Below are positions 21,379-48,441 of a DNA stretch of 64,000 bases, in pieces. The stretch comes from an uncultured Verrucomicrobiae bacterium (GTDB taxonomy: Bacteria > Verrucomicrobiota > Verrucomicrobiia > Chthoniobacterales > JAFAMB01), in assembly GCA_963813025.1 (NCBI GenBank), contig CAWEXO010000011.1:160001-224000 (forward strand), written 5' to 3'. Positions within the stretch are counted from its first letter, which is position 1, and every line of letters starts with the position of its first letter. Both the position numbers and the translations under genes were made by a program. A model generated the notes under the pieces. The model was given only the letters and a program-made list of their open reading frames with translations, made no database searches and was not told the DNA's origin.

Positions 21379-21426
21379 AAGACAAGGCTATCGGTAGATC
21401 GCTCCGTCTGCAACTGGGACGCAAAG

Positions 21427-21582
21427 AGCTCCCGCTTGACCTCCTTGATGTTGGATCAGATCTGGATCCGGACGAGCTGGCCACCTCCGCAAGGCTACCG
21501 CGCGCCCTCCGGTCAGGCGTTGGTGCCATTCCATATCCGGGCCGCGACGAAGGCTTGTGCGTAGTCGGGAGCTCATCCAGGA
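21427..21582 (-). repeat. Dispersed intergenic element, copy 1 (candidate ncRNA, small ORF or MITE)
   Basis: About 20 differences over ~155 nt (hand count) versus 48123-48277 in inverted orientation; closing stem GAGCTCCCG/CGGGAGCTC. Confidence 0.85.
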
Positions 21583-21759
21583 GCTCATCCCTACCGCCAA
21601 TCGCTTGGCGGCGCGCTACAAATTACCCAAAATCCGACACGCACTTCCGGCCGGTCAGTGGAGTCTGCGCGGATGCTTTGGTTGCGGCTCTGCTGCGCTG
21701 TGAAGACGTTGAAATCGAGACCGTTGATGTGGTGAGCTCTCCACAGGCGCGTGGCGGGA

Positions 21760-22368
21760 TCAAAGCCAGGCTCGGGCTTGCACGATGTCGTCTTGCACTA
21801 GTCCGTGCGAGGCACCGAGCATCTTGACCGTCACGTTGGCGCCGTGGTGTATTAGTTGTTGGGCGAGGCGCTGGGAGTCGCCGGGCGAAATGAGCGGATC
21901 GCGGTCACCCGTAAGCAGAAGAACCCGCCGGCCCGTGAGATCGGTCGCCGGAATATCGTCAGTAATGAACATCGGACGAAACAAGATTGCCGCGCCAATC
22001 ACCTCGGGACGAAGCAAAAGAAGGCCCTGCGCGATGTTCGCGCCGTTCGAGTAGCCCACTGCGGTAAGTGTCTCCGGGAGAATTCCGTGTTCGACACAAG
22101 TGGCCGTGACGAAATCCGCCAGCTCTTCGGAACGCTCTCGCCAATCGTCAACATCGAGAACACCCTCTGCAAAACGTCGGAAAAATCTCGGCGCTCCACT
22201 CTCGATGATCTGACCGCGGGGACTTATCACCGTCGCACCGGGCGCGATTTCACCCGCCAAAGGTACCATATCCTGTTCATCTCCGCCCGTACCATGCAAC
22301 AATAGAAGGCTGGAGCGGTTTGAGGTGGAACCCGGTCGATAGATATAGCGAAAGGGCGGCGTGCTCAT
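21760..22368 (-). CDS. Phospholipase/carboxylesterase family alpha/beta hydrolase
   Basis: LLHGTGGDE, RFFRR, GYSNGAN, C-terminal HGL. Confidence 0.88.
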   Translation of the reverse strand: MSTPPFRYIYRPGSTSNRSSLLLLHGTGGDEQDMVPLAGEIAPGATVISPRGQIIESGAPRFFRRFAEGVLDVDDWRERSEELADFVTATCVEHGILPETLTAVGYSNGANIAQGLLLLRPEVIGAAILFRPMFITDDIPATDLTGRRVLLLTGDRDPLISPGDSQRLAQQLIHHGANVTVKMLGASHGLVQDDIVQARAWL

Positions 22369-22542
22369 GATTTGGCCTTTGCTTTGAGCTATAGCGGTCA
22401 GGTGATGGATATCACTCAGGCCCATAAGATTAGAAGACGAAACATTCGCAGCCACCGCTTTGTTTGAGCGTTTCCTCTGCTTTTTTCCGCTGATCGATCT
22501 CAACCTGCAGGGCCTGATTGATCTGTTCCAAGTCGGCGAGCC

Positions 22543-22591
22543 TTGACTATTCGTAACGAATCAGTTACGGTATTCGTAACCAAATGGTTAC
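22543..22591 (+). promoter_or_regulatory. Sigma70-like promoter with two ArsR-type operator palindromes
   Basis: TTGACT-17nt-TACGGT; GTAAC-N6-GTTAC at 22553-22568 and 22576-22591. Confidence 0.7.
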
Positions 22592-22934
22592 AGCAAGGCA
22601 CCAGCAAAGCAACGCGGTTTTCCGCGCCATTGCCGATCCGACTCGCCGAGAGATCCTCAGGCTCTTGCGCGACGGTCGCCTCACCGTCGGAGAGGTCGCG
22701 GCAAACTTTCGCACCAGTCGTCCGGCAATCTCGAAGCATCTTCGTCTGCTGCGCGCCGCGGGTTTAGTGGTCTGTCACAAAGACGGCACGACCCGTATCT
22801 GTGATTTGAATGCCAAACCGTTGCGCGCCGTTAACGCGTGGCTCCGGGATTACGAAGCGTTCTGGGGAGAGAGCCTGCGTAACCTAAAGAGCTACATCGA
22901 GAAAACCGAACATCAAAGAGAGAAGAAGTTATGA
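22584..22934 (+). CDS. ArsR/SmtB family regulator
   Basis: VFRAIADPTRREIL, SRPAISKHLRLL. Confidence 0.9.
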   Translation: MVTARHQQSNAVFRAIADPTRREILRLLRDGRLTVGEVAANFRTSRPAISKHLRLLRAAGLVVCHKDGTTRICDLNAKPLRAVNAWLRDYEAFWGESLRNLKSYIEKTEHQREKKL

Positions 22935-23398
22935 ATCCGACGAATACGAGCGATATCATCGTCCAGGAAATCACAATCAGGGGGTCAGCGGAATACATCT
23001 TCGAGGCACTGACAGATCCCGGCCAGCTGGTCAGTTGGTGGGGGGCCAAAGGACAGTTCCAGACTACTCATGTAGTGTCTGACCTGCGCGTTGGCGGCAA
23101 GCGGATCATGTGTGGAATCGGCTTGAGCGGAGAGCCCTTCACCGTCGAGGGAGAATATCGCGAAATCGATCGACCCAAACTGCTCGTGTTTAGCTGGCTT
23201 CCCAGTTGGCAGGCGGATGCGACCGAGACAATGGTCTGCTTTGATCTGGAGGAGAAAGATGGCGTCACGACGGTCCGTTTGACACACTCCGGCCTTGCGA
23301 GTGAGAGTTCCCGCGCAAGTCATAAAGGATGGCCTCAGATCCTCTCCCTGCTGCAAGCTTACGTCGAGCAGGCGCCGATCCCAAAGCAGCAGAAGTAA
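22931..23398 (+). CDS. SRPBCC/AHSA1 domain protein
   Basis: IFEALTDP..LVSWW, DLRVGG, LVFSW, TVRLTH..GW; ATGA overlap with the ArsR gene. Confidence 0.88.
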   Translation: MNPTNTSDIIVQEITIRGSAEYIFEALTDPGQLVSWWGAKGQFQTTHVVSDLRVGGKRIMCGIGLSGEPFTVEGEYREIDRPKLLVFSWLPSWQADATETMVCFDLEEKDGVTTVRLTHSGLASESSRASHKGWPQILSLLQAYVEQAPIPKQQK

Positions 23399-23411
23399 AT
23401 TGATAACTATC

Positions 23412-23631
23412 GAGTTGCGCACAGAGGTCACGGAGCATGCCTTGCCGTTGATCAAGCGTTTTGTGGCAGTCGTAAGCTGAGCTTTGCTAAAATCTGGAAG
23501 CTAGATTCAAACAAACCGTGAACGAGCCTGGTTTACCCAGGATCAACGAACAAAGCTTATCATCATCTAACCAACAAAGAAGGTGTAATATTTTCAATCA
23601 TTCCGTGTACACCGTGGCCTCCGTGCGAGGT
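23412..23631. repeat. CACGGAG-periodic inverted arms between convergent genes
   Basis: GCGCACAGAGGTCACGGAG ... CCGTGGCCTCCGTGCGAG. Confidence 0.65.
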
Positions 23632-23700
23632 CCTCTTTTCCTTTAGCGATGCACTCAATGATACGATCGAGCTCGTCGAGAGTCATTTAAAGCTGACGTA

Positions 23701-24777
23701 TCAATTGTATCCGCGGTGACCGTGCCGGTGATGTAGGTCGGGCAGGTGAGCATGGCGATGAACCATTGGTTTGTGCCGGTGCCAATGTGTATGCGGTTCT
23801 CCGGGCGGATCGGTCGGCCGATGCTCGTGCTGATGATGTTCGTCGTGACGATGCGGATGCTCGTGTTCCAAGGCCTCATGGAAATGCTCGTGCTCGTGGT
23901 GCTCGGTCAAATGCAGCCAAACGCCGAGCAGCATGAGTAAAAGCGCGGGCCAGAAAAGAAGCTGGGGTACTTCACGCAGCAGCAGCAGCGAAAGGAGGAC
24001 GCCGATAAATGGCGCGGTCGAAAAGTAGGCGCCGGTCCGTGCCGTACCCAGGTCGCGCAAGGCTAAGACAAAGCAAGTAAGGCTCACCCCGTAACTGAGG
24101 AAGCCGAGTAGCCCCGCACTTGCCAAGGAGATCATCGGCGGCGCTTTCCCGCTCATCAGGAGACCGATCGCGAGATTGACTGTTCCAGCACTGAGTCCTT
24201 TGAACATGGCAATCTGCGATGGATCGAACCCGGAGACTTTACGCGTCAGATTGTTATCGATTGCCCAGCAGAAACATGCGCCGGCGATCATTAAGGCCCC
24301 CCAGGAGAAACCAAGCGCGTCACTCGGTTTCCAGGATAAGAGAAACCCTCCCGCGACAATGGCGATCATTCCAAAAAGGATACGCTTGTCAAAATTTTCG
24401 CGGAACGCAAACCAGGCGAGTAGCGTGGTGAGCACCCCTTCCAAATTCAACAATAGAGAAGTGCTGGATGCGGGGGTTGTTGATAAGCCGGCGAGCAGCA
24501 AGACCGGACCGATAATTCCGCCGCAGATGATAGCTCCAGTCAGCCACCCCCACGCTGAGCGGTCGAGCGCTGCTTCTGCTGCGGGCGCCTTCTCGCGAGA
24601 TGGCTGAATCCATCGCCACAAGGCCAGTCCCAGCCCGGAGCCGAAGTAAAGCGCGCCCGCCAATTCGATCGGTGACAAGCCATGTAGAAGAATCTTTGCC
24701 AACGGCGCGCTCGCCCCAAAAAGGAGCGCTGCGAAGAACGCGTTCCTTACCCCGGCAGAGAAGGATATGGGCTTCAC
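23701..24777 (-). CDS. DMT/EamA transporter with His-rich C-terminal tail
   Basis: Multiple TM segments, WAIDNNLTR, LGTARTGAYFSTAPF, HEHEH...PDLHHRH tail. Confidence 0.88.
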   Translation of the reverse strand: MKPISFSAGVRNAFFAALLFGASAPLAKILLHGLSPIELAGALYFGSGLGLALWRWIQPSREKAPAAEAALDRSAWGWLTGAIICGGIIGPVLLLAGLSTTPASSTSLLLNLEGVLTTLLAWFAFRENFDKRILFGMIAIVAGGFLLSWKPSDALGFSWGALMIAGACFCWAIDNNLTRKVSGFDPSQIAMFKGLSAGTVNLAIGLLMSGKAPPMISLASAGLLGFLSYGVSLTCFVLALRDLGTARTGAYFSTAPFIGVLLSLLLLREVPQLLFWPALLLMLLGVWLHLTEHHEHEHFHEALEHEHPHRHDEHHQHEHRPTDPPGEPHTHWHRHKPMVHRHAHLPDLHHRHGHRGYN

Positions 24778-24886
24778 GGATATGTGCTTTTTATGATCCG
24801 TTGCTTACATCTTTCGGACAACGTCCCAATGCCGTCCCGGGTTTTGATTTGACCGGCGATTTGGCTGGTGTCAAAAAAGATGCTGG

Positions 24887-25657
24887 ATGATCAAATTCTT
24901 GGTAAGCAGTGACTTGCCCGAGGTTGTTACCGCCTCTCGGCCGCCTTGGCCGTTCAATACCCAGTACGCTCACGCTTTCCTGCTCGGAGTGTTTCTCACA
25001 ATCGCCCCAACCGCAAGCGTCGCGCAACTTGGTCGAGCTAAGCTAACTCATCAAACTCAAGCCGGTCACGCGTTACAAAAGCCAGCCGTTATCTATGTCA
25101 CGGACTTCGCCTTGGACCCTGGTCAACTTCAGTCTTCGAATCCTGTTCAGGAAAAAATCCAACAGGGCGGTGCCTTGAGACAGCGTTTGAACCAGTTTCG
25201 TGGCCAGGACAGCAGCCCGGAGGGACGTGCACAATCGCTGGTGAATCTCATGGCGGATTCGATTGTCCGGGATTTACAGGAGAAGCAGCTCAGCGCGCAA
25301 CGCTATTCGGTGGGGCGCACACCGAGAACCGGGTGGATCGTCAAAGGCAGGTACAAAACGCTTGAGCAAGGCAATCGCGTGGCAAGTTCTGAAATTGGCT
25401 TCGGCGCGGGTTCCCCGGTAGTGGAAGTTGAGGTTACTCTGGATGAAATCCGAAACGGAAAACAACGGCCCATTCTCCTGTTTGGAACCAATAAGGAAGA
25501 CTCCAGGGCTCCCGGTGGAGCAGCCTTGGCTGCGGCGACACACAATCCCTACGCAATGGCCATCAAGTTTGTTCGTTCACGAAATGACCTCGAAAAAAGC
25601 GTTAAGCAGACGGCGAAGTTGATCGCCGATCAGATCGCCAGAAAGGCTGGTGTTTAG
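24887..25657 (+). CDS. DUF4410-like exported protein
   Basis: IYVTDF, GWIVKG..QGNR...IGFGAG; start codon uncertain. Confidence 0.65.
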   Translation: MIKFLVSSDLPEVVTASRPPWPFNTQYAHAFLLGVFLTIAPTASVAQLGRAKLTHQTQAGHALQKPAVIYVTDFALDPGQLQSSNPVQEKIQQGGALRQRLNQFRGQDSSPEGRAQSLVNLMADSIVRDLQEKQLSAQRYSVGRTPRTGWIVKGRYKTLEQGNRVASSEIGFGAGSPVVEVEVTLDEIRNGKQRPILLFGTNKEDSRAPGGAALAAATHNPYAMAIKFVRSRNDLEKSVKQTAKLIADQIARKAGV

Positions 25658-27515
25658 GGAGCCCGGACATTTCGTAGCCGATTACTGCCACGGACTCTGG
25701 AGCGCGGTCTTGGCAGTTCCCCTCCTCTTCGGCGGTTGCGTCGCTCAGCGGCAAGGCCAAGCTGCACCGCAGAACCAAGCCGAACGCCTTCTCACGCGGA
25801 CAGAACGCAGCGAGCTCCCTCCGGAGCAACGAACCGCTCAATACTTGGCCGTTTGTGAAACCGCCGAGAATCAACCGAAGCAGCGTCCCGGATCGCCGAT
25901 TTCTCCAAGCGCCGAGCCGGTCCTCATGTACGACCGTGCGTCCGCTGACTTGGCAAGCAGTTTGCCTGCCCTGCTCCGCAAACATCCGGGTTCCCGTAGT
26001 TTCGCGGTTCGTAACTCGCAGACAGGAGAAGCCTTCCTATTGCGACTTGAGTTCAGTCGTTCGGAAGAATATCGGCCTGATTTTTTTCAGCAAATTCTGA
26101 CGGCTCAGCGCGTTAAAAAGAAAGGACTTAACGTCAATGTTTCTCACGCTGGGTTTCGTGGCCCTGTTGTGGGTGTACATCACACTTTTCCCGTTGGGAC
26201 GCCGCCGCCGCGTTTCGAGCCTTTGCAAGGTTTTCGAATACCGATGACTGCGATTGTTGAGTTCGACAAGGCCAGTAAACCGACCACTGCTCGCGTTCGG
26301 CTCCTCGATCCCGACAAAGTTGAGTCTACGACTTTGGCGGGAAAACCGCGAGGGTTGGCCGCTGATTATTCCGCTACCTACGGCTCTTACCGATCGATTA
26401 ACGAAACCTGGATCGGCTTTTTGAACATGGCGCGCGGTCAGCACATGCGCGGCTCTTCCGGATTGTTGTTTGCTGACCCTTATAATTCCAAAAAAATTCC
26501 AGTGCTTTTGGTCCACGGTCTGCTCGCAACGAGTTACACCTGGAGAAACGTTGTAAACTCGCTGACCGCGGATCCTAGGATCCGCCGGCACTACCAATTC
26601 TGGGTTTTCTCGTATTCGACGGGCAATCCAATTGCCTACTCTGCTTACCTCCTCCGAACTGACCTGGCCGGCGCTCAGCAAGCGTTCAGATTCAAGCAAC
26701 TGATATTGATTGGTCACAGCATGGGCGGGATCCTGGCGCGTTTGCAGGTAACTAATTCCGGACGGAAAACCTGGGATGAGGCTTTTGGCGAACAAGCCAA
26801 CCAGCTCTACGCGGAGTTACCCGAAACGTCGCTGATCAAGCGGGCGTTGCTCTTTCGAGCTAACCCGGCAATCAAACGCGTCATCTTTCTGTCCACACCA
26901 CACCGCGGCGCTAGCCTGGCCTCTGGCGGGATCGGAGCTCTTGGCATCCGGCTGATTCGGTTACCATCCCGGATTGTCACCGCTATTCCTCAATCGTTAT
27001 TGGCAGCACTTACGCCCGATCGCAAAGCAAGAAAATACCGGTTACCGACCAGTATCAGCGGTCTGTCACCCAAGAGCCCATTGCTCATTGCGATGAACAG
27101 GCTTCCGATTGAAGCACCGCACAACTCGATCATTGGTGACCGTGGCCGGGGCGACACGCCAAACAGCTCCGATGGAGTGGTTCCTTACTGGAGTTCGCAC
27201 CTTGAGTCCGCGCAATCCGAGATCATCGTGCCGACCGATCACGGTTCGATGAAAAGCCCTCTGGCCGTCGCAGAAATCAGGCGAATTTTGCTGGAGGAGA
27301 TCGGGCAAAATCAAATGATTCATGTGCCAGTTGAACCACGCTATGGACGGACCGAAGAGCGAAACAAGCGAGCCGAGTTGAGGATGAAAGCCAGCTCCGA
27401 ACCCACATGGATCAGCGCCGCGATAATCGGCGCAAGCAGACCAAAGAATGCCAATCCTATTCCTACAGCGTCGACGACAATCGTACCCCAGAAGTTGAAC
27501 ATTATTACCCGATAG
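25650..27515 (+). CDS. Putative lipoprotein esterase/lipase (alpha/beta hydrolase); true 3' end probably near 27320
   Basis: LFGGC lipobox, KIPVLLVHGL, GHSMGG, TPHRG, SDGVVPYWSSH. Confidence 0.8.
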   Translation: MFREPGHFVADYCHGLWSAVLAVPLLFGGCVAQRQGQAAPQNQAERLLTRTERSELPPEQRTAQYLAVCETAENQPKQRPGSPISPSAEPVLMYDRASADLASSLPALLRKHPGSRSFAVRNSQTGEAFLLRLEFSRSEEYRPDFFQQILTAQRVKKKGLNVNVSHAGFRGPVVGVHHTFPVGTPPPRFEPLQGFRIPMTAIVEFDKASKPTTARVRLLDPDKVESTTLAGKPRGLAADYSATYGSYRSINETWIGFLNMARGQHMRGSSGLLFADPYNSKKIPVLLVHGLLATSYTWRNVVNSLTADPRIRRHYQFWVFSYSTGNPIAYSAYLLRTDLAGAQQAFRFKQLILIGHSMGGILARLQVTNSGRKTWDEAFGEQANQLYAELPETSLIKRALLFRANPAIKRVIFLSTPHRGASLASGGIGALGIRLIRLPSRIVTAIPQSLLAALTPDRKARKYRLPTSISGLSPKSPLLIAMNRLPIEAPHNSIIGDRGRGDTPNSSDGVVPYWSSHLESAQSEIIVPTDHGSMKSPLAVAEIRRILLEEIGQNQMIHVPVEPRYGRTEERNKRAELRMKASSEPTWISAAIIGASRPKNANPIPTASTTIVPQKLNIITR

Positions 27516-29308
27516 CATCTTTTAGCGATCGCTAGTACCTCCGTAAGACGTGAGAGATCGCTCGTCATCAAGGTTATATCCGCGGTCTCGAGCGCAACAT
27601 CGCTGCCGCCGCCCATTGCTATTCCAACGGTCGCTTCGGCCAGTGCCGGAGCGTCATTAACTCCGTCTCCGATCATCGCGACTTTGCGGCCTTGTCGAAG
27701 GAGTTCCCGGACTTTCTCGAGCTTCTGCTCAGGTAACAGATTGCCGATGGCCTCGTGAACTCCGAGCTGACTTCCGATTGCCGCCGCAGCCTCGCTGCTG
27801 TCACCGCTCAGGAGCACAGTGCGATAGCCCTTTCGCTTCAGTGCATCGATGGCTTGAACGGCTTCCTCGCGAAGCTGGTCAGCAACGGTCAACGCTCCCA
27901 AAAGCGTCGCGTTTCGGCCTACATAGATGAGCGTTTCTCCGGGCTTCGTTTCCGGCTGGAACGATCCCGCGGCGTTTGTCGCAATACGAATTCCGTTGTC
28001 CCTCAGGAGCGCCTGTGTTCCCACGATGATCTTGCTGCCCTGATCGAGACAAGTCAGGCCTTTGCCCGGGATGTACCGAAGATCAGTGTATTCGCGCAGA
28101 GAGAGCTGCGCGGCTCTGGCCTTGCGGATGACGGCTTCGCCCAGAGGATGTTCTGAGTGCTGTTCGGCGATGGCCGCATTTTGCAGTACGTCTTTGTCCG
28201 TCGCACCGTTGGTGACCCGAATTCCGGTAACCTCCGGGACGCCCATCGTTAGTGTACCGGTTTTGTCTAAAACGATGATATCAATGCCCGCGAGCTTTTC
28301 CAGATAGAGCCCGCCTTTGACGATAATTCCACGTCGGGCGGCACTTCCGATACCCGCTAAAATGGCTAACGGCGTACCAGCTGCAACGCCGCATGCCCCG
28401 GCCACTATGATCACGGCAATGGTGGAAGTGAGATTGCGCGTCACGACAAAAGTGAGGACGGCGGCCGTCAGCGCGAAGTAGACCAGACCGGCGGCGAGAC
28501 GATCGGCAATTCGCTGCGCCGGGGCTTTCGATTTTTCGGCTTGCTCGACAATCTCAACAATTTTTCCAAAGGTCGTGTCGCGTCCGATCCGCTCAGCGCT
28601 AACTTCCAACACTCCGTTCTTGTTGATGGTTCCGGCGAAGACCTTGCTGTGTTCAGTCTTTTCAATTGGAAGCGACTCGCCAGTGATCGAAGATTGATCA
28701 ACGTAACTGCTGCCTTTGGTCACTGTTCCGTCGACCGGGATTCTTTCTCCTGGACGAATCACGATTACTTCTCCGGCGGAAAGTTCTTCGGCCGGCAGCT
28801 CGCTTTCCTGACCATTCCGACGAACGGTCACGTGGCGCGGCAGTGCATTGATGAGCTTTTCGATGGCTCGGCGTCCGCCACTGACCGTATAGCCCTCAAG
28901 CAACTCCGCGAACAGAACAAAGAATGCGATAACAATTGCGGTAAAAAATTGTCCGATCGCAAGCGCCGCGAGAAGCGCGATCGTCATTGACAGTTCCATT
29001 GTCATCCGGCGCTTGCGGAGATTTTCCCAAGCCTCTCGATAGATGGGCAATCCGCCAATCACCGTTCCCGCGAATGCGAGCCAGTCCCGATGCATGAATG
29101 GGAGCCACCACCCTGTCACACTGGCCACGACGATGAGACCCATCAGAGCCAGTCGAATGTATCCCGCGGGGCCGTTCTGGTGATCATGGTCGTCATGATC
29201 GTGATCATCGCCATGGCGATGATGATGACCAGCGTCAGGTTGCTCATGGCCGTGCTCGGTGTCCGCAAGGTGGCCGGCGGGATCCATGGTTTTGCTCGTA
29301 GTCTTCAT
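27341..29308 (-). CDS. Heavy-metal P1B-type ATPase with His-rich N-terminus
   Basis: TGES, DKTGT, SEHPLG, GDGVNDAPAL; atypical M4 motif VAGACGVAAGTP. Confidence 0.93.
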   Translation of the reverse strand: MKTTSKTMDPAGHLADTEHGHEQPDAGHHHRHGDDHDHDDHDHQNGPAGYIRLALMGLIVVASVTGWWLPFMHRDWLAFAGTVIGGLPIYREAWENLRKRRMTMELSMTIALLAALAIGQFFTAIVIAFFVLFAELLEGYTVSGGRRAIEKLINALPRHVTVRRNGQESELPAEELSAGEVIVIRPGERIPVDGTVTKGSSYVDQSSITGESLPIEKTEHSKVFAGTINKNGVLEVSAERIGRDTTFGKIVEIVEQAEKSKAPAQRIADRLAAGLVYFALTAAVLTFVVTRNLTSTIAVIIVAGACGVAAGTPLAILAGIGSAARRGIIVKGGLYLEKLAGIDIIVLDKTGTLTMGVPEVTGIRVTNGATDKDVLQNAAIAEQHSEHPLGEAVIRKARAAQLSLREYTDLRYIPGKGLTCLDQGSKIIVGTQALLRDNGIRIATNAAGSFQPETKPGETLIYVGRNATLLGALTVADQLREEAVQAIDALKRKGYRTVLLSGDSSEAAAAIGSQLGVHEAIGNLLPEQKLEKVRELLRQGRKVAMIGDGVNDAPALAEATVGIAMGGGSDVALETADITLMTSDLSRLTEVLAIAKRCYRVIMFNFWGTIVVDAVGIGLAFFGLLAPIIAALIHVGSELAFILNSARLFRSSVRP

Positions 29309-29322
29309 CGCGAGGTAATGGG

Positions 29323-29601
29323 TTACTTCAGATATCGTTTAATGACTTCGATCAGCTCCTCGCCGGCAGCCGCTCTACTGGCGTTCTTCTGAGAATCGGT
29401 TTGCAAGAGGTGCAGCCGGACATGGCCCTCGAGGATTTCCGCCATCAGCGCGTTCAGAGCGCCGCGGCAGGCGGCCAAAGTAAGAAGTATATCGCCGCAC
29501 TCCCGTTCTTCATTGAGGGCCTTTTCCAAACCGTTGAGCTGGCCGCGAATGCGGCTGATTCTGGCCAGGAGTTTCTTTTTGTTTTGAATCGTGTGTGCCA
29601 T
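29323..29601 (-). CDS. CsoR/RcnR/FrmR family metal-sensing repressor
   Basis: MAHT...RISRIRGQ...EC..IL..LAACRGA...EGH. Confidence 0.9.
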   Translation of the reverse strand: MAHTIQNKKKLLARISRIRGQLNGLEKALNEERECGDILLTLAACRGALNALMAEILEGHVRLHLLQTDSQKNASRAAAGEELIEVIKRYLK

Positions 29602-29630
29602 GACTTGCGCGTTTCACGTTTCGGCGAAGT

Positions 29631-29658
29631 AACATACCACGGTATGGTATTTTTTCAA
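29631..29658 (-). promoter_or_regulatory. Promoter with CsoR/RcnR-type operator
   Basis: Minus strand TTGAAA-16nt-TATGTT with TG extension; palindrome ATACC-N7-GGTAT at 29634-29650. Confidence 0.65.
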
Positions 29659-29761
29659 GTTCGCTTCTCCTGCGCGCCCGTTCGAGCTCGAAGCGTTGTA
29701 CGGCGGCGGTGCCAAGATGATTCTTGCGGAAGAGGCTTATCGCTTTATCATATCCGGTTTA

Positions 29762-30136: not shown

Positions 30137-30249
30137 GAGCAAGGACCGGCCCGGGTTCCGCTTCTTTCGCGGAATGAGGTGACCGGTGCTCCGCATGCCC
30201 GGGTTCCTCCGCTCGAGGAGCCATATCTTGTATTTCGCGCTCTCACACG

Positions 30250-33511: not shown

Positions 33512-33516
33512 CAGCC

Positions 33517-37182: not shown

Positions 37183-37242
37183 TGGGTTGCGGCGCCTGGG
37201 GAACCGCTATCGACAGAGGTTCTAACTTAGAAATAAATAGGA

Positions 37243-37515
37243 CTCACACGGAGGTCGCAAAGATCGCAAAGATAAAGACAATCACATTTTTCCGATCTCT
37301 GCGATCTTTGTAATACTGATGTTGAACTTCACGCAAGTTCGCGATGATTTTCATACGGCGAGGATTTTTCGTCCTCGTCCTCGAGTAAGGCGCACGGCCT
37401 CGTGCGTCACCTCCCGGGATACGGACGGGGCCGTCCGCGCTACGCGAGTGCTCTCACTTCAACTTGGCGGCAGCCGGGTATCTTCGAGGACGAGGACGCC
37501 GACGAGACCGAGGAC
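37243..37515. repeat. Cluster of periodic palindromic repeats between convergent genes
   Basis: GTCGCAAAGATCGCAAAG...CTCTGCGATCTTTG (37243-37310) and CGTCCTCGTCCTCG...CGAGGACGAGGACG (37370-37515). Confidence 0.65.
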
Positions 37516-37556
37516 AATGCGGTTGCGGCTAATTAGAGCTCACCCTCAGACTCGAT

Positions 37557-38694: not shown

Positions 38695-38712
38695 GTCCTC
38701 GACGATCTCCGT

Positions 38713-39714: not shown

Positions 39715-39745
39715 GACTTCCCTGACTCTCTCACCGGACTGCGCG

Positions 39746-40772
39746 CTAGCTGAGCAACACTTTGCCTGAGCCCGGCGTGATCTGCCCGATCACTTTGCCT
39801 CGGGTCAGGCTAACCACTTCATTTTGCTGATGTTTAGCCACCACCAAAACCATTCCGATACCCATATTGAAAACCTGGAACATCTCTTCCGGGACGATGT
39901 TGCCGCCCTTCTGAATAAGCCGAAAAATAGGAGGCACCTTCCAGGAACCGACATTAATCAGTGCGTCACAGGTGCCGGGCAGGATGCGAGGTAAATTATC
40001 GATCAGACCGCCACCAGTGATGTGCGCGGCCCCTTTAACTTTCCCTGGAGGAATCGCCGAAAGGACAGGTTCATAGTTTCGGTGAGTGCGCAGCAACTCA
40101 TCACCGAGCGTTCTTCCCAGGCTTTCGTGCTTTTTTGTCAGATCCAGTCGCATCTGGTTCAACAGAACTTTCCGGGCCAACGAATACCCGTTGGTATGGA
40201 GCCCATTGGAGGGCAGGCCGATCAATGCATCGGAGGGAACGATCCGGGAACCATCAAGCATCCTGCACCGATCAACCAAGCCGACGATGCAGCCCGCCAA
40301 ATCATACTCCCCGGCCGAGTACATGTCGGGCATCTGGGCGGTTTCGCCGCCGATGAGAGCACAGCTGCTCACTTTGCAGGCTTTGGTAAATCCGGAAATC
40401 AGCTGATCGAATACCGCTGGATCGAGGTGCTCGGCGCCGATATAATCGAGGAAGAAAAGCGGCTGCGCACCGATCACAGCGATGTCGTTGATGCAGTGGT
40501 TGACGAGATCCTGCGCGACTGATGTCATGCCTGCCCAAGGCAACCGCTATTTTTAGCTTTGTGCCGACGCCATCGATACTGGCCACGAGGACCGGGTCCT
40601 TGAATCCTCTGAAATCGGCCCGAAACAAGCCGCCAAAGCCACCGGAACGTCCAAGAACCTCCGGACCGAAGGTGGTTTTTACCTTTTCATGTAGCCCTCG
40701 TTTGACCCGATTACCGAGATCGATGTCTACTCCGGCCGCGGCGTAGGCTTTTTTCTGGCCGCTCGGCGTCAT
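39746..40772 (-). CDS. purM: Phosphoribosylformylglycinamidine cyclo-ligase; frameshift near 40520
   Basis: YAAAGVDI, GGFGGLF, DGVGTKL, PLFFLDY, GGETA, HTNGYSL, HITGGG, FNMGIG. Confidence 0.93.
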
Positions 40773-42241
40773 TTTCGACTCGGCAAAAAGTTCAGGATGG
40801 GCCAAGGATTCCGCCAGCTGCCGCGGGCGCGTCTGACGGCGTTCCATGATAAACTTGTCCAGCTCGGTATCGATCGGCACGGGGTAATGGCCGTTGAAAC
40901 AGGCCAGACAGAACTCGTTCTCTGGCAGCCCGGTCGCCCGGACCATCCCGTCTAGATCCAGATAACCGACTGAGTCGACTCCGAGATATTCGCGAATCTC
41001 TTCCTGTGAATAGCTGGTTGGCCAGGAGGTTCTTCGGGTCGGGAAAATCGATGCCGTAATAGCAGGCAAACCGATGCGGAGGACAGCTGATCCGCAAGTG
41101 CACCTCCTTCGCGCCGGCCTCGCGCAAGATTTACAACTTTTGCCCGGGCTGTCGTGCCACGCACGACGGAATCATCGACCACGACTACGCGTTTACCGGC
41201 GACCAGCTCTTTGATGAGGTTCAGTTTCACCCGCACATTAAAATCGCGAATAAGCTGGGTCGGCTGGAGAAAAGTGCGTCCGATGTAGTGGTTCCGCACA
41301 AATGCATGTTCGAAAGGAATCTCCAGTTCCTGGCTGAATCCGAGCGCCGCGTAATTGCCTGAGTCGGGGACAGGCACGACGATGTCTGCTTCCACGGGGT
41401 GCAAGCCGGGCGAGTTCCCGTCCCATCGCCACTCGCACCCGGCTGACGTTCCTGTCGCTGAATCATGGCTGTCCGGGCGAGCGAAATAGACGTATTCAAA
41501 CATGCAGAAAGCTGGGCGCTCTTCCTTGAAGGGCCATTCGGAGCGAATCCCGTTCTCGTCGATGATAACGACTTCGCCCGGCTCGATTTCGCGAATAAAC
41601 TCCGCGTGGATCAGGTCCAAGGCGCAGGTCTCGGAGGCCAGGACATAAGCGCTCCATCCAGTTTGCCCAAGGGCGAGCGGCCGAAAACCAAAAGGGTCGC
41701 GCACTCCGATGATCTCGCTTCTCGCCCATCAACACAAACGAGAAAGCGCCTTCGATCTGCCGCAAAGCAGCCAGAGCACGTCGACTGCGCCGGACTGGGC
41801 GAGCAGGTGCAAGGACTGATCTCACTATCGACGGTGGTCTGGAAAATCGAACCTTTGGACTCCAGGTCCTCCCGCAAGACCGCCGCGTTGATCAGGTTGC
41901 CATTATGCGCAATGGCCAACTGGCCTCGCGCACAATCGACCACCAACGGCTGGGCGTTCTTTAGTGTGCTCGATCCGGTCGTCGAGTAGCGCACATGTCC
42001 GATGGCTCGCGTCACCCTTGAGCTGTTTCAGCTCCTCTCGCCGAAGACCTGGGCGACCAGCCCCATTCCGCGATGAATATTGAACGGGCTGATGCGGCCC
42101 CTCCGCGGTCACGATGCCGGCGCTCTCCTGCCCGCGATGCTGCAGCGCAAAGAGCCCGTAGTAGGTCAGCAACGCGGCGTTTGGATGCCCATAAACGCCG
42201 AAAACGCCGCACTCATGTTTTGGTCTATGCGAATTTTTCAC
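40769..42241 (-). CDS. purF: Amidophosphoribosyltransferase; many frameshifts
   Basis: [60 protein letters not shown]. Confidence 0.93.
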
Positions 42242-42244
42242 CGG

Positions 42245-44475
42245 TCAGGGAGTGGCCATCAGACGCGCCAAAGAAAAATACCATGCTTTGGAAGAGTTCC
42301 TCCACACCCCACCTTAGTAGTCGACCCTGCGTCTCGATTTGTAAATCGACTACCCCCGACATCCCCAAGCCGGGAAGCGGCTACACCCAAGGCAGGCACA
42401 GATGGACTGCGCCGCAGTCACGTCCTCGGACAGAAACGCTCACTAGCAGCGCGATTGGCTCTCGTTGAAGAGAACCTGGTCCAGGCGGGCGCTCTCCACC
42501 GAGAGTTCGACAGCCGCGCCGATCCGTCGCAGCGCCGGACAAGCAGCACTCCGCCAACGCAACGGCCAAGCCGCCTTCGGAACAGTCGTGCGCACTGCGG
42601 GCAAGTGCCTCCCGGATCAGATGCCGGACCGCCGCTTGGACAGCCAGTTCCCGCTCATAATCAATCGCGGCGGCCGCCCCTCTTTCCTCCCGTGAACTGT
42701 TTTCAGATATTGCGAGCCGCCCAGTTCGTCACCGATCTCGCCACCAGGAAAATCGCATCGTCCTCTGTCTGGAACCCTTGACGCGTGATCCAGCGTTCTT
42801 CCTCGATCAGCCCCACCATTCCAACCGTCGGCGTCGGATCGACCGGACCATGGGGATTTTCATTGTAGAGGCTGACATTTCCTCCGGTGACCGGTGTGCT
42901 CAAACACCCGGCAAGCCTCCGCCAGTCCTTCGACCGACTCGCGCAACTGCCAGAAATTCTCGGGCCGGTAGGGATTGCCGAAGTTAAGATTGTCCGTCAC
43001 AGCCAGCGGAGTCGCCCCGGAGCAGGCCAGGTTCCGGGCGGCTTCGGCGACCGCGATCCGGGCTCCTTCTCGCGGATCGAGCTTGCAGTAGAGTGCGTTG
43101 CAATCGCTGGTCGCCGCCAAGAATTTGTCTGCCTCACGAACGTAAAACACCGCCGCGTCCGAACCCGGCGCGACGACGGTTCCGGCCCGGACGGTATGAT
43201 CGTATTGCCGGTAAACCCAGTTCTTCGAGGCGATGGTCGGATGCGCCAACAAGTCGGTAAAGGCTTTGCTCCGGATCAGCTTCGGCGGGCCGTGGACTAG
43301 ATCCAGTTCTCCGGGCGCTTGCGGGCGCTGAGCTTCCCGCGTTCGTAAACCGGCGCATCGTCCGCCAGCTTGTCGGCCGGAATTTCGACGACCACCGTGC
43401 CATCATTCAAAACGCGCATGAATCCGTCATCGGTGACTTCTCCGACCATCGCATAGGGCAGATCCCATTTTTCGAAGATCTGCTCGACGAGACCCTCCTC
43501 GCCCCTCGCTTGGACGATGATCAGCATCCGTTCCTGCGATTCGCTCAAGAGAATTTCGTAAGGGCGTCATGCCCGGCTCGCGTTTCGGAACACGAGCGAG
43601 ATCGATCTGGACTCCGGTGCCTCCGCGACTAGCGGTCTCGCAAGTGGAGCAGGTCAGTCCGGCGGCGCCCATATCCTGGATTCCCGCCACAGCAACCGTG
43701 GCCAGAAGCTCCAGGCAGGCCTCCAAAAGAAGTTTGCCTTTGAAGGGATCGCCTACCTGCACCGCCGGCCGATCTGCCTTGATTCCTCGGTCAGATCGCG
43801 CGAGGCAAAGGCCGCTCCGGCCAAACCATCCCGCCCGGTCTCGGCGCCAACATAGAAGACTGGATTGCCAATCCCCTGTGCCGCTCCGCGAGCAATCTGC
43901 TCGTGGCGCAGAACGCCCAGACAAAACACGTTGACTAGCGGATTGCCCTCGTACGATTCGTCAAAATAGATTTCGCCGCCAATGGTCGGGCACGCCGACG
44001 CAGTTGCCGTAATGCGAAATCCCGCTGACGACTCCGCGCAAGAGCCGGCGATTTTGGCGGTGCCGCGCGGACGAATCCCTCGATCGGACCGAAGCGCAAG
44101 CGAATCCAGGAGAAAGACCGGTCGCGCGCCCATGGTAAAAATGTCGCGAATTATTCCGCCCACGCCAGTCGCCGCGCCCTGGAACGGCTCAATCGCGCTG
44201 GGATGATTATGGCTCTCCATTTTGAACGCGACTGCCCAGCCGTCACCGATATCGATCACGCCGGCATTTTCCTCTCCGGCGTTCACCAGCACGCTTGGAC
44301 CGGTAGTCGGGAACTTTTTCAACTCCGACCGGGTATTTTTGTAGGAGCAATGCTCGCTCCACATCACCGAGAAAACACCAAGTTCGGTGAAGTTCGGCTC
44401 GCGTCCGAGAATCCCTTTGATGCGATCGTACTCGTCGCTCGACAGACCGTGCTGACGGATGATTTCAGGGTTCAC
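42245..44475 (-). CDS. purL: FGAM synthase subunit PurL; many frameshifts
   Basis: [66 protein letters not shown]. Confidence 0.93.
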
Positions 44476-44515
44476 TTTGACGTCTCACGTTTCAGGTTTC
44501 GCGTCGGAAGAAGGT

Positions 44516-44659
44516 TAACCACAGATTTCACAGATTTTCACAGATTCGGAGAAGACGAAGGCGGCTTCGGGCCAAACGCGACAGCAATTCGCGGCTTCCA
44601 ACATTCGCAAAAACTTTTGGCTAGTTTGAATCGGTGAAAATCGGTGCAATCTGTGGTTA
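44516..44659. repeat. CACAGAT-periodic palindrome between purQ and purL
   Basis: TAACCACAGATTTCACAGATTTTCACAGATT ... AATCGGTGAAAATCGGTGCAATCTGTGGTTA. Confidence 0.75.
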
Positions 44660-44676
44660 CCCTTACGTTTTACGTT

Positions 44677-45366
44677 TCACGCTGCGAGCTGCATCATCGA
44701 GCGGAATAACAACAGCCCGTCGACGCTGCCGAGGCGCGCATCCCAAGCTCGATCAGGGTGCGGCATCATGCCCAGAACGTTGCGCGCTGGGTTACAAATC
44801 GCCGCGATGTTCGCCACGCTCCCGTTGGGGTTGGATTTGTCATCAGGCCGGCCAGAGGCATTCACGTAACGAAAAACGATCTGCTCATTGGCTCCCAGAT
44901 CTGCAATTGATTCGGGAGTTGCGAAAAAGGCGCCTTCGCCGTGCGCGACCGGCATTTGCAAGAGCTGTCCGCGTTCGAATCCGACCGTAAAGGGAGTATC
45001 CTGGGTTTCAACGCGCAGCCAGACGTTTCGGCAGACAAATTCCAGAGAACGATTTCGGATCAACGCGCCGGGTAAAAGCCCGGCTTCGCAAAGGATCTGG
45101 AAACCATTGCAAATACCAATTACTGGTATTTGCGTTTCGGCTGCTTCCCGGACCGCTTGCATAATGGGTGAAAACCGGGCGATCGCGCCGCATCGCAGAT
45201 AGTCACCGTAGGAAAAACCACCGGGTAGGACGATTGCGGAAAAGCCTTCCAAACTGGTTTCCTTGTGCCAGACGTAATGCGCCTCGACGCCCAGACCGTC
45301 CGTGAGTGCGCGGAGGCAGTCCTGGTCGCAGTTTGATCCCGGGAATTGAATCACGGCGATCTTCAT
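44677..45366 (-). CDS. purQ: FGAM synthase glutaminase subunit
   Basis: [33 protein letters not shown]. Confidence 0.96.
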
Positions 45367-45614
45367 GAAGCTGCACCGGTCTCCGAGGGCGGCTCGATCG
45401 CATAGTCCTCGACGACCGGGTTGGAGAGAAGATCTCGGCAAATTTCCTCGAGCTTTTCTCTGTCGGGCGCTTCGCTGAACTCGAGTTCCAGGAATTTGCC
45501 GACGCGCACCTGGGAAATCGTTTCGAGACCGACTTCGCGGATCGCGTTGCGCACCGCCACGCCCTGAGGATCCAATACGGTTTGTTTCGGCATTACTGTC
45601 ACGTGCAGCTTCAT
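45363..45614 (-). CDS. purS: FGAM synthase subunit PurS
   Basis: [25 protein letters not shown] overlap with purQ. Confidence 0.94.
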
Positions 45615-45814
45615 CGGAGGAAATCCATACTCGGGGTCGTTGCCGGACTCGTCAAGGAGGGCTGCGGCTGACGACCCGGGCGAAAATCTCGCATTGATAT
45701 GGATCGGCGCGGACATCCTGCGACTCCTGTAATCCTGCTCATCCTGCTCCGTTCCTTCACATTCCGTCCGCTTTGAAGTAGTATTTTCCGCTCGCATGCG
45801 CTTAAGATAGGACC

Positions 45815-46677
45815 GTGTTCAGTCTGACCCTTCTCGGCAGTGGGAGTCGGGGAACTGCGCGCTCCTAGCTACCGGGACCTGCCGCGTTCTGATCGATGCC
45901 GGACTCAGCGCGCGCCAGATCTGCCAACGACTGCAGAACGTTGGTGTCTCTCCAGAGTCGATCAATGCGATCCTGGTCACACACGAGCACGCGGATCATG
46001 TGACCGGGCTGGAGGTTTTTTGCCGGAAATATCCGGTACCGGTCTACTGTAACGCCCGCACAGCGGAATCACTGAGCTATGGGGGGCTGGCGGAGCATTG
46101 CTTTTGGCGTTTGTTTGAGACCGGATCGGTTTTCGAACTGAAGGATCTTGTTGTTCAAACATTTTATGTGCCGCACGATGCGGTTGATCCTGTTGCATAC
46201 GTGTTCACCAACGGGTGCGGATCAATCGGGTATTTGACTGACTTGGGTTACGCGCCTCGACTCGCGCGAGAACGGTTGCGCGATGTTAATACCCTCGTGA
46301 TTGAAACGAATCACGACGAACGCATGCTCCAGGACGACGCTCGCCGTCCCTGGTCAGTCAAGCAACGGATCCTTTCCCGGCATGGTCATTTGTCAAACGG
46401 CGCTGCGGCCCGATTTGTCGCGGAGATCGCCGGCAACGATTTACGCCGGGTCATCCTGGGACACCTGAGCCTCGAGTGTAACACGCCCGATCTGGCTCTT
46501 GCCGCGATGGACGCGCTGGGGTTGGCCGACCTCGAGTTGCACTGTGCCAGCCAGCATCAGGTGAGTCCTGCTTTCCAAATTGAGAGAAAGCCGCGATCAA
46601 CGATGCAGGAGAAGGTAAATCCAGTTCGCCATGATCGCCGCCCCGAGAGCGACGGCCAACGGCTTTTTGATTTGTGA
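45815..46677 (+). CDS. MBL-fold metallo-hydrolase (YycJ/PhnP-like); frameshift near 45850
   Basis: LGSGS.GNC, LIDAG, THEHADH, HDAVDP, TDLG, ETNHD, GHLSN. Confidence 0.85.
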
Positions 46678-47118
46678 TCCATTCACCGGCAAACGGATAG
46701 CCGGATAGCGCAAAGTGAGTACGGCGACGGCATAAAGATCGACCAGCAGCACCGCGCAAAAAAGAAGGCACATGAGTGGGTTGAGCAGAAAAGCGCGTCC
46801 AAACTGGCCGTGGACGAGTCCGAGCGCGCAGCGCGTAGATCCGCAGGCTGGGCAAGGGATTCCAAACAGGTGTCGTAGCCAACACTTCGGCCAGGGCAAA
46901 CCGAGATACAGCCAACCTAAACAGCCGGCTCCGAAAGCGACTGTACCGGCGAGGAACCAGGCGATCGCTTGCCTCTGCGCTGCCGAGTCGGTTGCGCTCT
47001 GGTTAAAAGCCGGTTTTGAAATAAACGATTCCAAAATGCTTAGAATTTCTTCCTTCAAAGAGCAGCAGAAATCTTCGGCGTAGTGGAAACTTCGGCTGCC
47101 GCAGCTTACATTACTCAC
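46597..47118 (-). CDS. DUF2752-like membrane protein (start uncertain)
   Basis: C.LRHLFGIPCPACGSTR...AFLLNPL, C-terminal NWIY. Confidence 0.75.
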   Translation of the reverse strand: MSNVSCGSRSFHYAEDFCCSLKEEILSILESFISKPAFNQSATDSAAQRQAIAWFLAGTVAFGAGCLGWLYLGLPWPKCWLRHLFGIPCPACGSTRCALGLVHGQFGRAFLLNPLMCLLFCAVLLVDLYAVAVLTLRYPAIRLPVNGSQIKKPLAVALGAAIMANWIYLLLHR

Positions 47119-47155
47119 AAACCTCTTCGACTGCCTAGGCGAAGAGGTTTGCGAG
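47113..47155. other. Hairpin between the YIP1 and DUF2752 genes
   Basis: CAAACCTCTTCG-ACTGCCTAGG-CGAAGAGGTTTG. Confidence 0.45.
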
Positions 47156-47165
47156 CAATGCGGGC

Positions 47166-48047
47166 CTAATGAAGATCTCGTTGGGCTTGGCTAAGAGCAA
47201 AGAAAACCAGGCCGATTCCTGCGGCAAAACAGAGTAGAAATGGGGCAAGCAGAGCCACACCCGCTTTCCACGTTTCGATTTCGTGCACCCGGCGCAGCCC
47301 GGTTACACCGACGATGAGAAACCAGACCATGCTCACCAGAACGCCGATGCACGGTACAATGGTAAAAATGCTCGCGGCATTGGAGTAGCTCACAACTTTG
47401 TAGGTGGCGGCGTAGCCACGTCGATTACCGCCGACCAGCATGAGCACCAGGTGATAAATCCCGGACGCCACGAAGTTCCACGCGAGAGCCAGGAAAAAGC
47501 CGAGCACGGCGACGATTGGCAGGAAAGCAGTCGGGGTGGCCAAGCCGAGATCCGTTTCATTGGCGTGCGCCAAGCTCCGGCTCAAAGGGAAAAACGCCAG
47601 ATTGAGAAGGACCGAAACAAGTAGTGATAAGCCGATAATGATGGCGTAGAACCCGGTGGCACGCCCGATCTGCCCGTTCACCGGCAATCGGGCAAAGGTG
47701 GGACCGGGTTCAAAGAGCACTTGACGGAAAGTCGTGAAAAAAGCTTTGGTCAGAGGCATGCCTCCCGGATTCTCCCAAGCCGGAGCGGGTTCGGTCGAGG
47801 CCGCCACCAGCTGAGCCTGCGGCGCGCTTTCACTGGGGAGAACAGCAGGGATCGCCTGTCCGGCTCCTTCCGGTTCAGGCGGCGGAATCCGTACTCCAGG
47901 AAGTTCCGAAAGAGGTTTCCAGGCCGGCATCCCTTCCTGCCATGCGAGGTCGGTCGGAACGAGTTGTCCTTGTTCCAAGCGGCGTTGCACCTCTTCCAGC
48001 GAAAACGTGCCAACGTTCTGTCCGGCGCGGTTGATCCAGATTGTCAT
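47166..48047 (-). CDS. GYF_2 (DUF4339) plus YIP1-like membrane protein
   Basis: IWINRAGQNVGTFS...DLAWQEGMPAWKPL, then VLFEPGPTF and several TM helices. Confidence 0.8.
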   Translation of the reverse strand: MTIWINRAGQNVGTFSLEEVQRRLEQGQLVPTDLAWQEGMPAWKPLSELPGVRIPPPEPEGAGQAIPAVLPSESAPQAQLVAASTEPAPAWENPGGMPLTKAFFTTFRQVLFEPGPTFARLPVNGQIGRATGFYAIIIGLSLLVSVLLNLAFFPLSRSLAHANETDLGLATPTAFLPIVAVLGFFLALAWNFVASGIYHLVLMLVGGNRRGYAATYKVVSYSNAASIFTIVPCIGVLVSMVWFLIVGVTGLRRVHEIETWKAGVALLAPFLLCFAAGIGLVFFALSQAQRDLH

Positions 48048-48122
48048 GACCTCTCGCGTTGTAGAGTATCGAGGCGAAGATGCCAACGCCGAAAATGGAT
48101 GGCGGAAGGAAATCGTCGCCCG

Positions 48123-48277
48123 TCCTGGATGAGCTCCCGAGTACGGACAAGCCTTCGCCGCGGCCCGGATATGGAATGGCACAAACGTTTGACCGGAGGG
48201 CGCGCCATAGCCTTGCGGAGGCGGCCTGCTCGTCCAAATCGAGACGCGATCCAACACTAGGAGGTCAAGCTGGAGCT
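48123..48277 (+). repeat. Dispersed intergenic element, copy 2
   Basis: Inverted homologue of 21427-21582. Confidence 0.85.
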
Positions 48278-48441
48278 TGCCCCTGGCGACTTTGGGTAGT
48301 TGCGAGACAATCGCTTGAGAGCGGCCCTCGGCGCTGAAGCGCAGGCCTACTTTCTTGCACCTCCTTCCTTCTTCGCGAAACCTTCGGCGGGCACAGCCGG
48401 AGCGAGAGCAAAGATCCAACAGGTGGACCATCAAGCTCTCG

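Follow-up and report, generated by a model that had tools for sequence, protein, structure and literature searches.

The closest described systems are the GTAG-type REP, REPIN and REPtron sequences with their RAYT (TnpA-REP) proteins (Bertels and Rainey 2011, PMC3116915; Ton-Hoang 2012, PMC3333891; Corneloup 2021, PMC8266576; Di Nocera 2013, PMC3733652). The element described here resembles them in several ways: i) a GTAG tag is joined to a palindrome; ii) the palindromes form an inverted doublet with a spacer; iii) copies are dispersed and occur in mosaic clusters; and iv) a RAYT gene is flanked by the same REP. Twenty-four GTAG families have been published, and the present REP may be among them; such repeats are reported from Verrucomicrobia (O. 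terrae). For E. coli it has been published that RAYT cleaves at CT and that strands are transferred from one REP site to another (PMC3333891, PMC8266576). Certain repeat dimers (A. variabilis GTAG-15, T. roseum GTAG-23, H. neapolitanus CGTC-1) lie inside other palindromes (Di Nocera 2013, section 7, PMC3733652), and a hairpin dimer at a fixed place within another palindrome is also found here. Two further systems invite comparison with the element: the Ssn nucleases with their NTS/SRM hairpins, in which oriented hairpin repeats are tied to small single-domain GIY-YIG genes (Chenal 2025, PMC11893778), and classical MITEs of the RUP, Correia/NEMIS and ERIC type, which like the element are about 90 nt long, non-coding and present in many copies with roughly inverted ends.

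The preliminary description reported a similar pair of ~155 nt in the window (the whole 64,000-nt stretch that was analysed), and alignment of copy 1 (21427-21582, minus strand) with copy 2 (48123-48277, plus strand) indeed gives 18 mismatches and one gap over 156 columns. Rather than being present twice, the inner unit has 22 full-length copies in the genome under study (G000, 80%-complete), the two of the window among them. The spacer plus right REP occurs 48 times, with an insert in 14 copies, without in 27 and unclassified in 7, and the insert-free form of the outer repeat is thus present in at least 27 copies. Some copies are interrupted, duplicated or truncated. Both window copies are intergenic, each between co-oriented genes, and inspection of both loci upheld the earlier statement that they are oriented oppositely relative to the flanking genes; genome-wide, a rough automatic count gives a mixed orientation to neighbouring genes. 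Two matches were seen in viral contigs.

The components of both copies are listed in the table. The weaker similarity said to extend upstream is not homology: next to copy 2 lies host sequence preceding a GYF/Yip1 gene, kept to window position 48114 in the sister species (G001), where the element is absent, and next to copy 1 lies a separate repeat module. This module also precedes a sub-family of insert-free copies (C5:298570, C1:190633, C14:439090). Copy 1 combines both flanks of a short sub-family with a 12-nt head duplication common to several other long, insert-bearing copies. A clean empty genomic site was not found, both window loci being synteny breakpoints in G001.

Table. Components of the two copies and adjoining repeat modules, in window coordinates
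Feature	Position	Strand	Remarks
Neighbouring repeat module, other REP-like family, outside the element	21640..21703	-	30 genome matches over >=70% of length
Neighbouring repeat module with GNRA-type hairpin (21594-21611)	21594..21641	-	23 genome matches
Copy 1, GTAG head and left-REP 5' arm, with 12-nt head duplication	21569..21595	-	
Copy 1, nested 89-nt doublet	21480..21568	-	Ends certain to within 1 nt
Copy 1, doublet, left hairpin	21542-21568	-	
Copy 1, doublet, variable middle	21507-21541	-	
Copy 1, doublet, inverted right hairpin	21480-21506	-	
Copy 1, left REP, displaced 3' arm	21470..21479	-	
Copy 1, REPIN spacer	21442..21469	-	Nearest are three insert-free copies, alignment score 48 of 52
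Copy 1, inverted right REP, truncated	21427..21441	-	GTAG tag and outer arm lost
Copy 2, left-REP 5' arm	48123..48136	+	GTAG head lost; abuts host upstream sequence
Copy 2, nested 89-nt doublet	48137..48225	+	HMM match C11:208137-208225
Copy 2, left-REP displaced 3' arm and REPIN spacer	48226..48262	+	
Copy 2, inverted right REP, degenerate tag	48263..48287	+	
Downstream module, found after most copies	48288..48314	+	Consensus of copies
Degenerate single hairpin, same family as the insert's ends	48360..48396	+	7 genome matches

In its outer part the element is a REPIN, with a spacer of ~28 nt enclosed by two inverted REPs, each a GTAG tetranucleotide 5' of a short palindrome; each window copy has lost one of the two tags. 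The intact left REP has 33 copies in G000 and 176, 113 and 111 in three relatives, with none in the reversed control. The same REP flanks a RAYT gene in G000 (C13), in G027 (C163) and in G001 (L346). A Pfam Y1_Tnp search of G000 missed the cognate gene there, and none of 30 plus 25 Y1 loci from the family contained the REP; it was a weak match beside the REP in G027 that led to the gene. In G027 the REP stands on either side of a 154-aa protein, whose score of 79.1 bits against NCBIfam REP_Tyr_transpos falls just short of the cut-off of 80. The G000 protein (C13:20967-21416) was placed by its 51% identity to that protein and by its motifs, HIH and Y..NPVR. An insert-free REPIN copy lies directly upstream of this intact HUH/Y1 gene (C13:20827), and is among the closest relatives of the arm and spacer of copy 2.

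What distinguishes the element from other GTAG REPs is that in 22 copies a foreign 89-nt doublet, made up of two inverted hairpins, splits the four-base loop of the left REP. Removal of the doublet restores the intact REP exactly, with a junction ambiguity of one base only and, unlike classical MITEs, without any target-site duplication. The rejoined host is present as an exact 17-mer for 17 of 61 host contexts, and complementarity of the host stem is maintained across the insert. Each hairpin consists of a basal stem, a bulged G, a 4-bp stem and a GNA/GNA internal loop. The left and right hairpins present the G.A face of this loop on opposite strands, which fits a DNA element and not one RNA. 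Again in contrast to MITEs, the ends are kept as two separate hairpins and do not form a terminal duplex: at two positions where each hairpin pairs with itself, end-to-end pairing is broken in all 74 rows of the insert alignment. Conservation in this alignment is 0.94 and 0.90 against 0.47 in the variable middle, although the search patterns themselves account for part of the conservation of the hairpin letters. The middle varies from ~10 to 45 nt in length; as a target guide this least conserved part gave no consistent match by eye. Among 79 distinct left ends in metagenomes, 60 have the right end within 70 nt. As DNA, the insert by itself shows no folding advantage over shuffled sequences (z -0.03 to 0.23, standard pairs only).

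In related Verrucomicrobiota the doublet recurs, with the same ends, within several repeats that are unrelated to one another; at least six host contexts were seen, some of them unrelated to GTAG REPs. This differs from the published nested dimers, in which the REP is the guest: here the GTAG REP is the host, the guest belongs to another hairpin class and is found in several unrelated hosts, and empty hosts are present. On the insert tree, inserts group by host class (5 changes against 18.4 when shuffled), which indicates that entry into a host was rare and that most inserts spread with their host. The inserts of G000 form one clade (support 99/99), whereas the long copies as a whole do not (AU p 6e-8; 11 changes against 11.9 shuffled).

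These observations are probably explained by two-layer, non-coding parasitic DNA, in which a RAYT copies the REPIN and a passenger doublet is exchanged between copies through the REP arms. In the outer layer, the RAYT of G000 would copy the REPIN as single-stranded DNA; the passenger would move between copies by conversion or strand transfer via the short REP arms, after having entered host repeats a few times in the history of the family. Of the four possibilities raised in the preliminary description, the last, a non-autonomous mobile element, proved apt, in the form of a composite of dispersed repeats. The interspersion of long and short copies does not by itself fix the direction of change within G000, gain or precise loss. 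It fits equally well a history that began with the long form and repeatedly gave rise to the short one by precise deletion of the doublet, through slippage across the hairpins at the one- to two-base overlap, and the single clade of G000 inserts agrees with this too. Such a history is nevertheless improbable: the copy at the RAYT gene is short, short copies in G001 share the spacer while inserts there are only degenerate or partial, and in G027, G024 and G029 split REPs are far fewer than intact ones.

The source of the passenger may be sought beside small GIY-YIG genes. Its hairpin type recurs in relatives between the 3' ends of tRNA or tmRNA genes and one clade of such genes, whose proteins match Pfam GIY-YIG and have UPF0213 and SLX1 as best solved relatives (PDB). 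A hairpin finder scored 15 of 30 loci of this clade (10 of the 30 were already known from the family, and other-family loci gave 7/20), compared with 22/200 random windows, 2/13 UvrC loci and 3/30 RAYT loci. The association is a correlation. Sequence likeness of the insert to the GIY-YIG flanks is modest (13-19 bits, 3 of 33 loci), and no insert adjoins a GIY-YIG gene among 152 loci searched. The doublet would derive from the hairpin region of a tRNA/tmRNA-linked GIY-YIG cassette. Other partners and origins were considered: four-helix-bundle genes had the hairpin at 0/10 loci; the 3' end of tRNA-Pro had the doublet at 0/30 loci (of 47 listed matches, in 41 of 401 class genomes); and no tRNA of G000 has the doublet directly after it.

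The Ssn system offers a plausible model for the insert's ends in its strand-specific recognition (PMC11893778), but the SRM pattern matches 0/22 copies and 0/10 GIY-YIG loci, the hairpins here carry the GNA/GNA internal loop, and the genes of the clade stand behind tRNA or tmRNA ends, the word "tRNA" being absent from the main text of PMC11893778. A more specific proposal, which we hold only tentatively, is that the doublet represents, in non-autonomous mobile form, a GIY-YIG cassette that is tRNA-anchored and does not belong to the Ssn/SRM class, and that it inserts precisely into hairpins of other selfish repeats and then hitch-hikes on their RAYT transposase. The doublet could also be independently mobile as a parasite of REPINs, with a small GIY-YIG nuclease reading the hairpin on single-stranded DNA and nicking it, and repair inserting it at a C-rich site in exposed hairpins or repeats. 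The variety of hosts and the tie to one clade speak for this, as do the base 3' of the junction, which is C in 56 of 61 contexts, the single hairpins of the insert family found in other repeats at a fixed junction (the same four preceding bases in 15 of 21), and the precedent of a related enzyme class that cuts single-stranded DNA beside its own hairpin (PMC11893778). It is unlikely all the same: inserts group by host class, the clade was not found in G000 despite its 22 copies, an autonomous copy with the doublet's exact ends was not found, and SsnA has been demonstrated to cut, not to join or mobilise.

The elements do not form a small protein gene, nor are they a conserved RNA. The codon-like signal first noticed in the pair is correct as far as it goes, since the two translations hold and synonymous changes make up 7 of the first 13 (with 0.27 expected, p is about 0.04 when one frame is considered and about 0.2 when all six are), but it vanishes over the 22 copies: 40 of 146 changes are synonymous (0.27, expected 0.27), substitutions are spread flatly over codon positions (74/61/63), and the net length change breaks the frame in 9 copies. 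By inspection of translations, start and frame are kept in 8 of 22 copies and broken in 14. The proposed ATG lies within the REP stem and varies with the stem in relatives, and the length of the middle ignores frame. A family of small proteins or dual-function RNAs therefore has virtually no chance of being the explanation. Two further coding assignments were rejected: AGGAGG as ribosome site of a 106-aa ORF, which is ~60 nt too far upstream, and a 422-aa ORF through copy 2, the extension of which is not kept in G001.

A multi-copy regulatory RNA, such as a CsrA/RsmA-binding sponge or a transcript-stabilising RNA under selection, would find a CsrA encoded in G000 and GGA motifs in the copies; the window copies, lying between co-oriented genes, may be co-transcribed, and REPs can affect mRNA stability according to passages of PMC3733652. 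The RNA features fared poorly over the wider set. The stems named earlier can be drawn, but the GNRA-type hairpin among them belongs to the neighbouring module, and the "closing stem" is merely the pairing of the two inverted REPs. Two-sided changes number 2, 1 and 0 in the three proposed stems, in which 20, 35 and 11 cells are broken, and RNA folding of the whole element is not clearly above shuffles (z -1.67 and -0.09). The GGA triplets, held to be conserved, occur in the middle of only 14 of 74 inserts, 7 of them from G000. Rfam returned nothing on the element, at the gathering score for the window or at E up to 5 for five loci, in line with the first impression that no known RNA family is represented; neither a covariance-model match nor the conserved GGA loops of a Csr/Rsm-type or other Rfam sRNA were found. 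Together with the mixed orientation to neighbours, the imperfect copies and the opposed G.A faces, this makes a regulatory RNA very improbable. In the two-layer parasite that we favour, any effect on transcripts would be incidental.

We found no description of this composite in the literature covered, the main texts of mainly open-access papers. As a REPIN alone the element is ordinary, and the nested passenger is the useful part. When just two copies are in view, a repeat mosaic can pass for a structured RNA or a small gene, as this case also illustrates. The ends of the passenger are defined, hosts without it exist, a RAYT is resident in the genome, and relatives supply candidate GIY-YIG partners, so that it lends itself directly to work on two questions: by what route modules are acquired and exchanged in REP mosaics, and whether hairpins are dispersed by the small GIY-YIG nucleases to which they belong, a hypothesis raised by Chenal 2025 (PMC11893778). 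If the reading as a GIY-YIG cassette were true, the doublet would parasitise REPINs and would testify that a GIY-YIG nuclease of 80 residues is able to spread DNA.

The two window copies, reported in the preliminary description as one element present twice, are alike, with 18 mismatches and one gap over 156 aligned columns. The window corresponds to C11:160001-224000 of the source genome, G000 (4.4 Mb assembly, 80% complete). A BLAST search of this genome gives dozens of full and partial matches; 22 near-full copies could be aligned, and the long matches to an HMM of the inner unit likewise number exactly 22. DNA matches to the element occur in 12 of 36 other genomes of the family and in none of the 24 genomes searched outside it. 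The exact inner-unit pattern was found in 13 stretches among species genomes, every one titled Verrucomicrobiae or Verrucomicrobiota.

The element is a composite. Its consensus starts with GGTAG, ends with CTACC, and runs from a left REP through a ~28-nt spacer to an inverted right REP, the arrangement of a REPIN. In the long copies 89 nt, a doublet of inverted hairpins (the insert), interrupt the left REP within its four-base loop; the short copies are insert-free. Among 48 copies of the spacer plus right REP, the left REP is intact in 27, split by the insert in 14 and unclassified in 7. Intact left REPs number 33 in G000 and 176, 113 and 111 in the relatives G027, G024 and G029, and are present in 16 of 43 family genomes (reversed control, 0).

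Features of the window, including five repeats of other families with 13 to 67 overlapping genome matches
Feature	Position	Strand
Copy 1 of the element	21427-21582	-
89-nt doublet, copy 1	21480-21568	-
Copy 2 of the element	48123-48277	+
89-nt doublet, copy 2	48137-48225	+
Degenerate single hairpin of the insert family	48360-48396	
106-aa ORF	21058-21378	-
Multi-copy repeat, other family	20771-20827	
Multi-copy repeat, other family	37334-37498	
Multi-copy repeat, other family	51731-51864	
Multi-copy repeat, other family	52276-52427	
Multi-copy repeat, other family	53552-53583	
Gene-length multi-copy stretch, probably an insertion sequence	11236-12536	
Gene-length multi-copy stretch, probably an insertion sequence	8145-9827	

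The left REP of the element is absent from the three Y1 genes that a Pfam search finds in G000 and from all 55 further Y1 loci. Pfam Y1_Tnp at its cut-off misses the clade of REP-associated transposase-like HUH/Y1 enzymes (RAYTs) to which that of the element belongs. A weak match in G027 leads to a 154-aa HUH protein that has the element's REP on either side and scores 79.1 bits on NCBIfam REP_Tyr_transpos (cut-off 80). Searching G000 with this protein gave five matches. The RAYT match at C13:20967-21416 has an open frame with HIH and Y..NPVR motifs; an insert-free REPIN copy and another left REP lie upstream of it and a stem variant downstream. This locus is a REPtron as defined in PMC3733652 and PMC3333891. 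G000 also has at least six other RAYTs, as genes or remnants, and their REP families differ (C14:454612, C15:124764, C11:605054, C8:135332, C5:185083 and C11:985715), the additional RAYTs at C14, C15 and C11 being near-identical paralogues. At L032 (G000:C5:183910-187140) long REP arrays surround the RAYT gene and repeat the gene's own 3' end. Elsewhere, at G000:C11:436200-438360, an IS110-like transposase gene has a long copy of the element on one side and, on the other, a fragment of the repeat module that neighbours copy 1.

A small-protein family and a structured RNA had also been proposed. Both translations of the window copies were correct, and 7 of the first 13 changes are synonymous as counted. 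Across the 22 copies, the same frame has 40 synonymous changes among 146 single-base codon changes (0.27; expected 0.27), and the best of six frames reaches 0.34 versus 0.26. The net length breaks the frame in 9 of the 22 copies, and start and frame are kept in 8, with translations judged by eye; the coding reading is not borne out. The three proposed stems have 2, 1 and 0 two-sided changes versus 20, 35 and 11 broken cells. Within G000 the split REP stem itself gives 1 versus 19, so the two-sided-change test alone has little power. The Rfam check returned no match on the element. The element could possibly act as a CsrA sponge, since CsrA is encoded in G000, but GGA occurs in the middle part of only 14 of 74 inserts. 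The 106-aa ORF directly downstream of copy 1 carries two CxxC pairs and has no Pfam or NCBIfam match.

A metagenome scan found at least 124 matching stretches; 80 of these, taken for examination, have 79 distinct left ends, with the right end at most 70 nt away in 60. Among the hosts of the insert are GTAG REPs of several stem types, a further GTAG family, a hairpin unrelated to these and short tandem repeats. In 17 of 61 host contexts, joining the flanks directly yields a 17-mer that occurs exactly elsewhere, and in 56 of 61 a C follows the junction on its 3' side. Pairing of the host stem is kept despite the insert, and each of its 8 pairs has two-sided changes. In an alignment of 74 inserts, pattern-selected from the examined loci, RNAalifold predicts two separate hairpins and nothing more. 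The two hairpins have a mean column identity of 0.94 and 0.90 and the middle one of 0.47, the hairpin figures being partly built in because many of their letters were set by the search patterns. All 74 rows lose end-to-end pairing at two positions at which each hairpin pairs with itself. The two ends present the G.A / A.G face of their internal loop on different strands, the left end on the bottom strand and the right end on the top. On the other side, the bare insert folded as DNA no better than shuffles. Single ~30-nt hairpins of the insert family lie within other REP-like repeats, with a fixed junction, at about 27 places in G000; 15 of 21 strict matches share the same four preceding bases. 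At L193, L219 and L022 one end is the exact inverted mirror of the other, the outcome that template switching would produce.

Hairpins like those of the insert may flank small GIY-YIG genes, and this association was tested. A strict hairpin finder scored at 6 of 17 small GIY-YIG loci, versus 0 of 13 UvrC, 1 of 30 Y1 and 0 of 10 four-helix-bundle loci. The positive loci belong to a single clade of genes behind tRNA-Gly, tRNA-Tyr or tmRNA. At L122, L124, L128 and L141 the space from the tRNA end to the start codon holds two inverted hairpins that have the same bulged G. A profile of this clade has matches in 56 of 301 genomes of the order and none in G000. A looser finder scored at 15 of 30 clade loci (8 of 10 in the family, 7 of 20 in other families); its controls were 22 of 200 random G000 windows, 2 of 13 UvrC and 3 of 30 RAYT loci. 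At 3 of 33 GIY-YIG loci a hairpin resembles the right end of the insert in sequence (13-19 bits), and no insert lies beside a GIY-YIG gene among 152 loci. Thus, the link is structural and correlational. SsnA cuts single-stranded DNA next to its hairpin, and mobility is put forward purely as a hypothesis in Chenal 2025 (PMC11893778). The SRM pattern of that paper matches 0 of 22 element copies and 0 of 10 GIY-YIG loci; the element is therefore not classed as an SRM.

A tRNA or tmRNA is present at 14 of the first 17 small GIY-YIG loci. Other small GIY-YIG clades also follow tRNAs directly (Met, Asn, Val, Lys, Gln; L118, L120, L121, L123, L131, L136, L140, L156, L158 and others), frequently in tandem with tRNA fragments that are repeated, but they lack the GNA/GNA hairpin. 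L402, L405, L407, L415, L416 and L418 have a conserved three-part hairpin region between tRNA end and GIY-YIG start codon, and behind some of these genes a tRNA 3' fragment is repeated, resembling an integrated cassette.

The long copies do not group as a clade in a REPIN tree built from the arm, spacer and right REP that long and short copies share, with 41 rows and 52 columns (AU p 6e-8; 11 changes versus 11.9 shuffled); adding the downstream flank gives 9 changes versus 11.8. A tree of the insert itself places the 7 G000 rows in a single clade (99/99), and inserts group by host class (5 changes versus 18.4, with 24 of 74 rows unclassified). Copy 1 shares its upstream module, its arm variant and its spacer with a short sub-family, yet has the 12-nt head duplication of other long copies. 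The insert would rarely have entered new hosts, would then have spread together with the host, and may have been exchanged among copies via the REP arms. CT stands on either side of the insert junction; in E. coli, TnpA-REP has been shown to cleave at CT and to transfer strands from one REP site to another (PMC3333891, PMC8266576). Alternatively, the insert may have been lost precisely and repeatedly; a clean empty site was sought in the sister species G001 and none was found, both window loci being synteny breakpoints. In the stretch from the GYF/Yip1 gene to ligD (window 48115-49900), G001 has neither the element nor the gene for the AI-2E transporter, so copy 2 marks a boundary of a segment that was gained or lost.

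REPINs with RAYTs are already known (PMC3116915), and PMC3733652 describes GTAG repeats in Verrucomicrobia and repeat dimers nested within other palindromes. The main texts searched hold no description of a REPIN with a nested doublet or of its hairpin sequences. The outer part of the element is thus a REPIN, of a known kind, and the nested 89-nt passenger is a new variant.
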